Position numbers and translations under genes: made by a program | Source: Octopus vulgaris | Taxonomy: Eukaryota | Direction: 5' to 3' | NCBI GenBank assembly: GCA_951406725.2 | Contig: OX597832.1 | Coordinates: forward strand, 17,608,001 to 17,672,000 | DNA: 64,000 nucleotides | Part shown: positions 35,518 to 62,299 of the stretch, one piece after another | Layout: each line of letters begins with the position of its first letter | Position numbering within the stretch: position 1 is the stretch's first letter | The notes under the pieces: generated by a model | The model's input: the letters and a program-made list of their open reading frames with translations, nothing else | Databases searched by the model: none | Told to the model about the DNA's origin: nothing

Positions 35518-35962
35518 TTAAGTAAAGTTAAGTTAAGTTAATTTTGGGGCTCAAAAAGCAAAAAGCAAGGCCATGTAGGGGGACATGGAGTTATGTACAG
35601 GGAAGGTGTTCATGCAAAGAGTTCAGGCCATTTCTGGTCATGGGAGACTTTGAACCGAGCGGTCGTCGGCATCTTCACTGTTTCGTCCGGCGGCTTATTC
35701 CACGGATCCGCAAACCGGACGGAGAAAGCCTCTCTCTTTCGATTGAGATGAAATCGTCGCAGATAGAGGTTTTTGGAGTGACCCCGTACCCGACACTCTG
35801 GAGCAGGAGTGAAGGATAGATCTTTCGAGAGGTTACACTTTCCGCTTGTTGTGAGCAGGAATGACATCACCACGGCGTCGTCGTTTTTCTAGAGAATAAA
35901 GGTCGAGCGTCTTCAGTATTTCTTCACAAGACAAATGCTTGAGACAAAGAACCATGCGGGTA
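35518..35962 (-). mobile_element. CR1-clade LINE 3' fragment
   Basis: LKHLSCEEILKTLDLYSLEKRRRRGDVI...RGHSKNLYLRRFHLNRKREAFSVRFADPWNKPP...FK matches the CR1 ORF2 C-terminal pattern; short 3' UTR ending in (TAACT)n. Confidence 0.88.
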
Positions 35963-36666: not shown

Positions 36667-36826
36667 CAACAATATCATCGAAAAATACCTTAGGAACGAA
36701 ACACAGGTTTGAAATTTTCATCAAGACACCTGATGAAGGCTGGAGGGTATATCAGACGAAACGTTGTGTTAATAACGAACAAGATGAGGACAAATATCCA
36801 TCAAATGTAAATAATGTAAATAATGA
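36446..36826 (+). mobile_element. tRNA-headed, HHR-bearing SINE-like element with an inverted 3'-end copy at its 5' side
   Basis: Inverted tail 36446-36508; A box tggcgcagtgg from 36516; B box agttcgattcc; (AAT)n spacer; HHR; tail. Confidence 0.85.
36725..36770 (+). ncRNA. Minimal type I hammerhead ribozyme motif
   Basis: gacac-CTGATGA-a-ggctg(gagggtatat)cagac-GAAAC-GTT-gtgtt; loopless palindromic stem III (aacgtt). Confidence 0.65.
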
Positions 36827-36847
36827 ATATACATACATATGAGCGTG

Positions 36848-44345: not shown

Positions 44346-44395
<50 letters not shown>

Positions 44396-44552
44396 TGACG
44401 TATTTTTGCCATTTCAATATGGCTAACCCCTAAGGGTGGATGCTACTGTAGTTTTTAGCCCCAGGAGGACACACTCCTCCAGCTGGCCATAGACACACTA
44501 TCTGTGTCCTGTCAGTATTTGCAAAGGGAAGTCATCCTTCCCGTCTTCAACT

Positions 44553-44613
44553 TATGATACACACGGACTCGAGTTTCGAGGTATTGACCTCTCGTCAGCG
44601 TGTGACAATCATA
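44553..44613 (-). ncRNA. Type I hammerhead ribozyme, copy 1
   Basis: Minus strand: tatgat-tgt-cacacg-CTGACGA-gaggt(caat)acctc-GAAAC-tcga-GTC-cgtgtg-t-atcata; canonical core with all three stems; predicted cut at 44566|44565. Confidence 0.88.
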
Positions 44614-44733
44614 GTTTGTGTTTATATATATATATATATATATAGGAGGACACACTCCTCCAGCTGGCCATAGACACACTATCTGTGTCCTGTCAGTATT
44701 TGCAAAGGGAAGTCATCCTTCCCGTCTTCAACT

Positions 44734-44794
44734 TATGATACGCACGGACTCGAGTTTCGAGGTATTGACCTCTCGTCAGCGTGTGACAATCATA
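44734..44794 (-). ncRNA. Type I hammerhead ribozyme, copy 2
   Basis: Same as copy 1 except one stem I substitution (44742); predicted cut at 44747|44746. Confidence 0.85.
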
Positions 44795-44950
44795 GTTGTC
44801 GCCGAGAATTAGATTTCCTTCACAAATACTTATACTTTTTCCAGCGCCCACTGTCGCTGATATTGAAAAAGTGAAATCAGGGGTTAGCCATATTGAAATG
44901 GCAAAAATACGTCACGATGTGTTACCGCTACTGTATATAACTCACTTTGA

Positions 44951-45009
<59 letters not shown>

Positions 45010-45252: not shown

Positions 45253-45257
<5 letters not shown>

Positions 45258-45483
45258 CTTTACTACCCACAAGGGGCTAAACACAGAGGAGACAAACAAG
45301 GACAGACAAAGGGATTAAGTCGACTACATCGACCCCAGTGCGTAACTGGTACTTAATTTATCGACCCCGAAAGGATGAAAGGCAAAGTCGACCTCGGCGG
45401 AATTTGAACTCGGAACGTAACGACAGACGAAATACGGCTACGAATTTCGCCCGGCGTGCTAACGTTTCTACCAGCTCGCCGCC
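45253..45483 (-). mobile_element. SINE family A monomer (tail 2)
   Basis: Near-consensus reverse-strand copy flanked by TA repeats. Confidence 0.9.
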
Positions 45484-45751
45484 TTGTATATATATATATA
45501 TAGTGATGGCGCATGGGTTAATGGTTAGGGCATTCAGTTCACGATCGTATGTTCGTGAGTTCAATTCCCGGCGAGGCGTTGTGTCCGTGAGCAAGACACT
45601 TTGTTTCACATTGCACTAGTTCATACAGCTGGCAAAAAAAAAATGAGTAGTACCTGTTATTAAAGTAGTTATGAGGAATTTACATCCAAAAGGCACAAGT
45701 ACAATCGTCATTAAAATGACTAAGTGTACAATATGTATTTTTGTACATATA

Positions 45752-46270
45752 TTCTCAAACGCAAATATGAGCAGCGAAAGCAGAAATTTTATTTACTGCA
45801 TCAAATGCCCGAATTGTGAAGGACTATATGTTTCTTATTTCTTTATTGCCCACAAGAGGCTAAACATAGATAGGACAAAGACAGGCAAAGGGATCAAGTT
45901 GATTTCATCAACCCCGGTACGCAACTGGTACTTAATTTATCGACCCCGAAAGGATGAAAGGCAAAGTCGACCTCGGCGGAATTTGATCTCAGAACGTAAC
46001 GGCAGACGCAATACCACTAAGCATCTCGCCCGGTGTGCTAACGGTTCTGCCAGCTCGCCGCCTTATGTGAAAAACTATATGTTGCTCATATTGGAAATGC
46101 ACTATCAGAATATTCTCGTGTGCACTGACAGCAAATTTGAGATCATCTAGCAACATGTTGTAGTAAAATATTTATATTTCCATTCTACAAACAACACACC
46201 CTAAGTGAAATTGAGAGAAAAATCATAGAAAAGAACTTTATTAATACATTCCAACCCAAGTTAAATAAAC
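45752..46270 (+). pseudogene. Penelope-like GIY-YIG endonuclease remnant interrupted by a SINE A copy (about 45833-46062, minus)
   Basis: NANMSSESRNFIYCIKCPNCEGLYV [SINE] ...H.QNI...FIFPFYK...ERKIIEKNFINTFQPKLN: IY-x-CxxC-YV and E..I..F.P.LN motifs. Confidence 0.75.
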
Positions 46271-62030: not shown

Positions 62031-62299
62031 TATGGCGTAGTGGTTAAGAGCGCGGGATACTAACCCCAAGATTCTGAGTTCGATTCCAAGCAGTGACTTG
62101 AACAATAATAATAATAAATATATCGAAAAATGCTCTAGGAATGAGAAACCAGGTTCGAAATTTCTCCAAGACACCTGATGAAGGCTGGAGGGTATATCAA
62201 CCGAAACGTTGTGTTAACAACAAACAAGATGAGGATAAATATCCGTCAAATTTAAATAATGTAAATAATGTACGTAATTTCTCATCTCTTATAGTATAG
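62031..62299 (+). mobile_element. tRNA-headed, HHR-bearing SINE-like element
   Basis: A box tggcgtagtgg, B box gagttcgattcc, short (AAT)n, second B-box-like ggttcgaaat, HHR, tail aatgtaaataatgtacgtaatttctcatctct. Confidence 0.85.
62170..62215 (+). ncRNA. Minimal type I hammerhead ribozyme motif
   Basis: gacac-CTGATGA-a-ggctg(gagggtatat)caacc-GAAAC-GTT-gtgtt. Confidence 0.65.

Follow-up and report, generated by a model that had tools for sequence, protein, structure and literature searches.

What kind of element places two hammerhead ribozymes 181 nt apart in one AT-rich microsatellite of a probable octopus, and which enzyme copied it there? An earlier note had described a cassette with 40-bp inverted ends and a possible 181-nt circle-forming unit, and had offered two origins: a young, non-autonomous retroelement tied to (TA)n and moved by the enzyme of a Penelope-like element (PLE), or a MITE that had captured a ribozyme. 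Analysis of the locus in its window (the whole 64,000-nucleotide stretch of DNA) and of related contigs in sequencing runs points to a modified form of the first. On sequence grounds, the locus probably consists of truncated fragments of a high-copy, non-coding hammerhead repeat, likely a 353-nt non-LTR retrozyme, which was likely copied into (AT)n by a PLE RT/GIY-YIG protein acting in trans.

Layout of the locus

The two repeats that first drew attention to the locus are both present. The inverted match between 44392-44431 and 44879-44918 is exact over 40 bp, and the 154-bp direct repeat (44463-44616 and 44644-44797) has a single mismatch, at 44742. What do these repeats delimit? Read on the hammerhead strand, the order is (AT)18; an inverted arm running from monomer position 213 back to 135; the junction at 44879; the direct part of fragment B (221→353→103); (AT)11 with a short AAAC-type stretch; fragment A (~303→353→174); (AT)22; and a flank beginning AAAC(A) (Table 1). 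The three (AT)n tracts that bound the fragments measure 44, 22 and 36 bp. Fragment A is truncated at its 5' end just upstream of the hammerhead and has no tail at its 3' end, and 7 nt of the monomer lie between position 213, where the inverted arm has its outer end, and position 221, where the direct part starts.

Table 1. Features of the locus and of the surrounding window; monomer positions are numbered from the ribozyme cut
Feature	Positions	Strand	Remarks
(AT)22 tract	44349-44392		3' of fragment A; the hammerhead strand then reads AAAC(A), host flank
Fragment A	44392-44616	-	Monomer ~303→353→174
Hammerhead 1, canonical type I	44549-44616	-	All pairs standard; predicted cut between 44566 and 44565
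Linker	44617-44644	-	(AT)11 and short AAAC-type stretch; outside the monomer
Fragment B, direct part	44644-44879	-	Monomer 221→353→103; crosses the ribozyme cut site uncut
Hammerhead 2, canonical type I	44730-44797	-	A·C mismatch in helix I (44742); predicted cut between 44747 and 44746
Inverted arm	44879-44957	+	Monomer 135-213, 79 bp; head-to-head with fragment B, 1-nt overlap
Overlap of inverted arm with fragment A, 40 bp	44879-44918	+	Monomer 135-174
Tail, 39 bp	44919-44957	+	On the inverted arm only; X4 contig 19 joins 44392 to 44919
(AT)18 tract	44955-44990		Outer end of the inverted arm
A-box-like motif	44479-44489, 44660-44670	-	Monomer position 77; no well-placed B box
GIY-YIG remnant	45647-46269	+	Decayed, PLE type
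SINE-like copies	45253-45501, 45836-46080		Two copies, 86% alike
Second repeat family	1965-2130, 36670-36835, 62115-62280	+	Three copies, about 86% alike, each just 3' of (AAT)n
LINE-like stretch	~35850-35930	-	Resembles the end of a CR1/L2-type reading frame

The 40-bp inverted ends are merely positions 135-174 of the monomer, because these are common to the arm and to fragment A. Nor does the element stop at 44918: the stretch 44919-44957, previously taken for flank, is element sequence, and the arm is 79 bp long. A MITE with 40-bp terminal inverted repeats would account for the perfect inverted match and the AT-rich flanks. Against it, the element extends 39 bp past one supposed end, and in run X4 this extension directly continues the other end (174→175). 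In addition, there is no symmetric TA duplication and the inversion points vary among copies (see below). Because the 40-bp ends are an overlap of two fragments and other copies invert elsewhere, the MITE reading is largely refuted, and we give it next to no weight.

What, then, separates the two hammerheads? The AAAC-type stretch of the linker matches the start of the locus's own 3' flank, so that (AT)n followed by AAAC(A) is found on both sides of fragment A. Judged by its sequence, the linker is likely to be a target-site duplication of fragment A, whose length is blurred by the microsatellite. Since the linker is target-like DNA, the 181-nt spacing of the cut sites is probably an accident of this locus and specific to it. 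The two fragments could have arisen either by two insertions or by one template-switching or duplication event.

The hammerhead motifs

The presence of two type I hammerheads on the minus strand, with cuts 181 nt apart, was borne out by a paired type I descriptor, which picks out these two motifs and no others in the 64-kb window; 20 shuffled versions of a 10-kb part gave none. The cores begin at 44598 and 44779, each with a GUC cut site. Helix I has 6 bp, helix II has 4-5 bp and loop III is palindromic. The 5-bp stem II with a CAAU loop proposed earlier is one of two readings; 4 bp with a UCAAUA hexaloop, the canonical metazoan size, is the other. By the definitions in the cited sections of PMC4209133, the motif is canonical and not of the minimal type carried by metazoan PLE repeats. 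Each unit does contain a canonical hammerhead, as claimed, but helix I of the upstream motif is disturbed by an A·C mismatch, which would be expected to slow its cleavage. The Rfam Hammerhead_1 model, suggested as a check, matches both motifs with 32.2 bits (E 6.5e-5) and 28.5 bits (E 1.1e-3), each under the gathering score of 34.

Covariation among copies gives a divided answer. In the variants listed, changes at 44771 and 44760 turn an A-U pair of stem II into G-C, their co-occurrence being deduced from equal depth in X4, but others, at 44772 and 44759, disrupt the first helix II pair. Core position 7 varies between C and U in the listed variants, and a change of core U4 is found in a minority of contigs (at least 6, at least 24 and at least 7 in three runs).

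Are the ribozymes likely to be active? In the isolated motifs, the minimum-energy fold mispairs the core, and the active fold is less stable by 4-7 kcal/mol. Li, Clavereau and Pollet (2026, bioRxiv 10.64898/2026.07.22.740005) report, in the portion of the preprint used here, that eight of nine Xenopus retrozyme dimers did not cleave in vitro. In principle, a 181-nt RNA could be cut from the present locus alone, if transcribed.

A likely family unit of 353 nt

The earlier note had taken 181 nt as the monomer. Three dominant contigs of run X4 argue for a longer unit. Contigs 19, 20 and 23 (126, 118 and 199 nt; depths 162, 180 and 197) differ from the window by 0, 0 and 1 letters, respectively. 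Contig 23 covers 44694-44879 and has 13 loose letters; contig 20 covers 44425-44542; contig 19 runs from 44454 down to 44392, then through 44919-44954, and ends in 27 letters beyond the reference stretch. Contig 23 overlaps contig 20, and contig 20 overlaps contig 19, by exactly 30 nt. An equal overlap between 19 and 23 requires the loose end of contig 23 to start at 44952, and it matches 44952-44957 at six of six letters (chance about 5e-4). The contigs would then form a cycle of 126 + 118 + 199 - 90 = 353 nt. Closure of the cycle is inferred, because the last 27 letters of contig 19 are unseen. It comes from X4, which is labelled RNA by guess (no run with the stretch is recorded as RNA), and a contig cycle looks alike for a circle and a tandem array. 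On this evidence, the family unit is likely 353 nt, as an RNA circle or a tandem unit, and not 181 nt. The cycle takes in 44919-44957, and the dominant X4 path runs 174→175 and 103→104.

The 353-nt model (seven letters of which are N) has 43% GC and a longest ATG frame of 38 codons. It lacks poly(A), a simple-repeat tail and a polypurine tract (all purine runs are shorter than 12), and the one primer-binding motif that was tried, a narrow test, had no match. Two shuffle runs gave the modelled circle folding z-scores of -7.2 and -5.4, compared with -0.8 and -0.4 for SINE and flank controls; the antisense circle also folds (z -4.6). In the predicted fold, the tail at 44919-44957 pairs with monomer positions 116-124 (9 bp). 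The active hammerhead within the modelled circle costs 6.8 kcal/mol. An A-box-like motif is found in both fragments (Table 1).

Could the 181-nt unit with its (AT)n linker nevertheless be spreading as a mini-retrozyme family? A circle of 181 nt would still contain a complete hammerhead and has a folding z of -3.3, X1 and X3 show another short junction (54→330), and reads that span the linker were skipped as repeats, so the alignments are blind to the linker elsewhere. However, the linker copies the 3' flank of the present locus, the dominant X4 path continues 103→104, and a 181-nt unit would lack positions 104-220, where the ends of the family lie. A 181-nt family is thus very improbable in our judgement, and the 353-nt unit is used in what follows.

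Copies in sequencing runs

The stretch was found in 20 of 24 listed runs, from seven organisms. Four runs were aligned to 44382-44954 at 80% likeness, giving 4286 matching contigs among 52.2 million records in X1, 3447 among 35.8 million in X3, 2043 among 28.3 million in X5 and 35 among 380,771 in X4. With thousands of matching contigs each in X1, X3 and X5, the family must be very abundant in at least three organisms. The locus copies are probably young, as had been proposed, because they differ from the dominant X4 contigs by 0-1 letters. The linker (44611-44655) was skipped as repeat in the alignment and its zero depth is uninformative. Exact-pattern scans of metagenome contigs, viral contigs and prokaryote genomes gave no loci.

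Do other copies invert at the same point? The earlier note had suggested that inverted ends of fixed length would indicate a MITE and ends of variable length a PLE. The ends are variable: the 17 joints listed comprise five that cross the inversion point on the same strand and are head-to-head inversions, all at points other than that of the locus (direct/inverted starts 112/155, 27/137, 10/152, 105/171 and 70/193), one tail joint, six opposite-strand joints and five internal skips. Each joint is represented by one contig at 80% likeness, except for one skip found in two runs; some sides are shorter than 30 letters, and joints at this likeness can arise from repeats. The orientation of the six opposite-strand joints is unreadable and they were left out of the head-to-head count, as were the internal skips.

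Five of the opposite-strand joints have both sides at 20-41 or one side at 95-112, and the sixth is 112/18. Four near-symmetric fold-back joints (44525-44546 / 44722-44727) lie 20-41 nt downstream of the cut site and may mark palindromic inversion junctions close to where the cleaved RNA has its 5' end. The joint 44589→44693 (monomer 54→330), seen in X1 and X3, which are two organisms, joins parts of the ribozyme region into a further, very short partial tandem. The joint 44454→44685 removes about 50 nt of the unit; its depth of 913 in X3 suggests a shorter subfamily with many copies.

In three runs, contigs (at least 20, at least 35 and at least 22) diverge from the reference at 44395 into mixed AT-rich letters. 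These loose ends agree only at about 0.5, and the letters nearest to the break recur in all three runs; some of them may belong to a subfamily with another continuation and not be true ends. Summed depth is 4-12 times higher over positions 104-170 than over 221-300 in X1, X3 and X5, and 2-3 times higher in X4. This gradient weakly fits 5' truncation and is confounded by contig overlaps.

The GIY-YIG remnant and other features of the window

A nearby Penelope GIY-YIG remnant had been cited in connection with mobilisation. The remnant is real: a decayed PLE-type endonuclease that contains stops and is interrupted by a SINE with a duplication of some 13 bp. Its best informative relative, P0003 (85 aa, Pfam GIY-YIG above cut-off), matches both halves. 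Atlas clusters also point to GIY-YIG, which is found on 10% of the members of one cluster. A match to the NLR-like protein P0002 was taken as chance. Searches of the remnant against Pfam, a 90% protein set and PDB sequences gave no match. The connection with the cassette fails: the remnant is on the other strand, old and shares no DNA similarity with the cassette, and is therefore not a copy of the partner. As read from its sequence, it does show that PLEs once lived in the host genome.

A second repeat family in the window carries a minimal PLE-type hammerhead, with a short helix I, an extra A before a long helix II and a palindrome in place of helix III; the motif is decayed in two of the three copies. 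The two SINE-like copies are presumably an octopus repeat, and the LINE-like stretch is probably part of a CR1/L2-type reading frame. SINEs and microsatellites are also what makes an octopus the probable host. No tRNA genes were found in the 64-kb window, and the Rfam microRNA matches there were dismissed as microsatellite artefacts.

Which enzyme moved the element?

Published PLE insertions, as described in the parts of Craig et al. (2021, PMC8557442) and Arkhipova et al. (2013, PMC3846280) considered here, include an inverted 5'-truncated copy, a tail of 30-40 bp at one end and (TA)n targets. A PLE protein studied in vitro cleaves AT-rich DNA on both strands, initiates cDNA at a pair of internal positions in the RNA, which delimit the tail, and works from RNA that has not been cut (Frangieh et al. 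2024, PMC11167929, sections cited). The present family shows a variable-length, head-to-head inverted truncated copy, a 39-bp tail on one arm, (AT)n bounds at the locus and AT-rich loose ends in other copies. Movement in trans of a retrozyme by a PLE is favoured because the locus fits the published inversion, tail, (TA)n targets, internal starts and uncut template. The earlier proposal of PLE mobilisation is thus judged probable, given the variable inversion, the one-arm tail and the (TA)n targets. The view of the element as a non-autonomous hammerhead retroelement tied to (TA)n also holds: (AT)n tracts bound the fragments and the unit has no reading frame.

How might the locus have formed? 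A tandem or circular RNA of the unit would be made and would self-cleave, as expected from the family. A PLE protein would then nick AT-rich DNA and start cDNA inside the RNA at about 174 or 213, the choice suggested by the two observed ends, so that a 39-nt tail is optional. As both fragments run across the ribozyme cut site, the template would have been either circular or a multimer left uncut. Priming on the second DNA strand may have produced the inverted arm, whose geometry is observed. Finally, two near-identical fragments in one microsatellite, from two insertions or one complex event, would have left the hammerheads 181 nt apart by accident. Use of both ends (174 and 213) across the family is weakly suggested, and the end of fragment B at 103, away from both, speaks against the start-site model.

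Would a LINE enzyme do as well? The unit could be a 353-nt retrozyme moved by such an enzyme, its inversion being ordinary twin priming. The gap of 7 nt between the outer end of the inverted arm and the direct part has the geometry of L1 twin priming (PMC12016303, in the part used), which needs no PLE and so counts against the PLE mechanism; short AT microhomologies at the ends also agree with a LINE. On the other hand, the unit has no poly(A) or simple-repeat tail, the inverted arms of other copies start at 137-193 whatever the direct start, and cDNA starts internally, as with the PLE protein of Frangieh et al. (2024, PMC11167929, sections cited). In addition, Alu, which is moved by LINEs, is nearly without 5' inversions (0.02%; PMC12016303, same part). 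We consider a LINE enzyme quite unlikely.

If PLE machinery is involved, is an independent retrozyme needed at all? The fragments could be stumps of the pLTR of an autonomous PLE, and the 353-nt cycle no more than pLTR copies in tandem. The sources excerpted above describe inversion, tail and (TA)n targets as hallmarks of PLEs, and some diverged contigs, among the loose ends listed, depart from the reference at 44872 and continue for another 222-293 unassigned letters. Yet the dominant X4 path likely closes without a reading frame. The hammerhead of the locus is canonical, whereas metazoan PLE pLTRs carry minimal variants, at least in the literature excerpted, and a separate family of the minimal type is present in the same window. 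An origin from a pLTR is therefore unlikely in our view, and a retrozyme moved in trans by a PLE is the reading carried forward.

Comparison with known systems

Non-LTR retrozymes are known from corals, mussels (350-390 nt), axolotl and many vertebrates, according to the sections cited of Cervera and de la Pena (2020, PMC7229834) and bioRxiv 10.64898/2026.07.22.740005. The present family shares with them a canonical type I hammerhead, a non-coding unit of 150-450 nt, GC below 50%, a self-paired fold, high copy number and a proposed PLE mobilisation. In contrast to the regular tandems of metazoan retrozymes in those sections, the present locus consists of truncated, inverted fragments with only a partial tandem, and is known here from its sequence alone. 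A PLE origin of retrozymes has already been proposed from ribozyme type, co-occurrence and pLTR phylogeny (bioRxiv 10.64898/2026.07.22.740005, part considered); in the parts of the two retrozyme papers considered, this case is made without inversion and tail footprints.

With endonuclease-bearing PLE insertions, the locus shares the head-to-head inverted truncated copy, the tail on one arm, (TA)n, partial tandems, internal RT starts and an uncut template (PMC3846280, PMC8557442 and PMC11167929, in the parts used). It differs from these in having no RT/GIY-YIG frame, in its canonical, not minimal, hammerhead and in a unit that is likely self-closing. The Chlamydomonas element MRC1 is likewise non-coding, with PLE-type insertions and head-to-tail copies (PMC8557442, sections cited). 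Its clade is mostly without hammerheads, whereas the present element has a full one. The hammerhead SINE/satellite repeats of schistosomes are likewise short, occur dispersed and in tandem, and contain a canonical type I hammerhead; those repeats have a promoter before the ribozyme, according to the portion of PMC6765202 used, whereas the present unit has only an A-box-like motif.

The present family has sequence-level features of retrozymes, so the kind of element appears to be known and the family itself new. A literature search found no description of it (Dfam, Repbase and the supplements of the retrozyme papers being outside its scope), and the cephalopod repeat literature checked does not contain the words 'hammerhead' or 'ribozyme' in its main text.

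Implications

The enzyme that moves animal retrozymes has so far been argued for indirectly, and a 2020 review, in the part considered, describes retrozyme repeats without a motif that names the mobilising partner (PMC7761336). A retrozyme with a canonical hammerhead and PLE-type tails and inversions would make that partner testable: starts at about 174 and 213 are predicted, on a template that is uncut or circular. More tentatively, and with the odds against the full scheme, a 353-nt hammerhead RNA circle of a probable octopus may be reverse-transcribed by a Penelope-like protein from fixed internal starts; its copies would carry the tail, the variable inversion and the TA targeting that name the enzyme, and repeated landing in one microsatellite might build shorter circle-forming units such as the 181-nt one. 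If the host is an octopus, the family would also add a high-copy ribozyme repeat to a host group for which the repeat papers checked mention no ribozymes.
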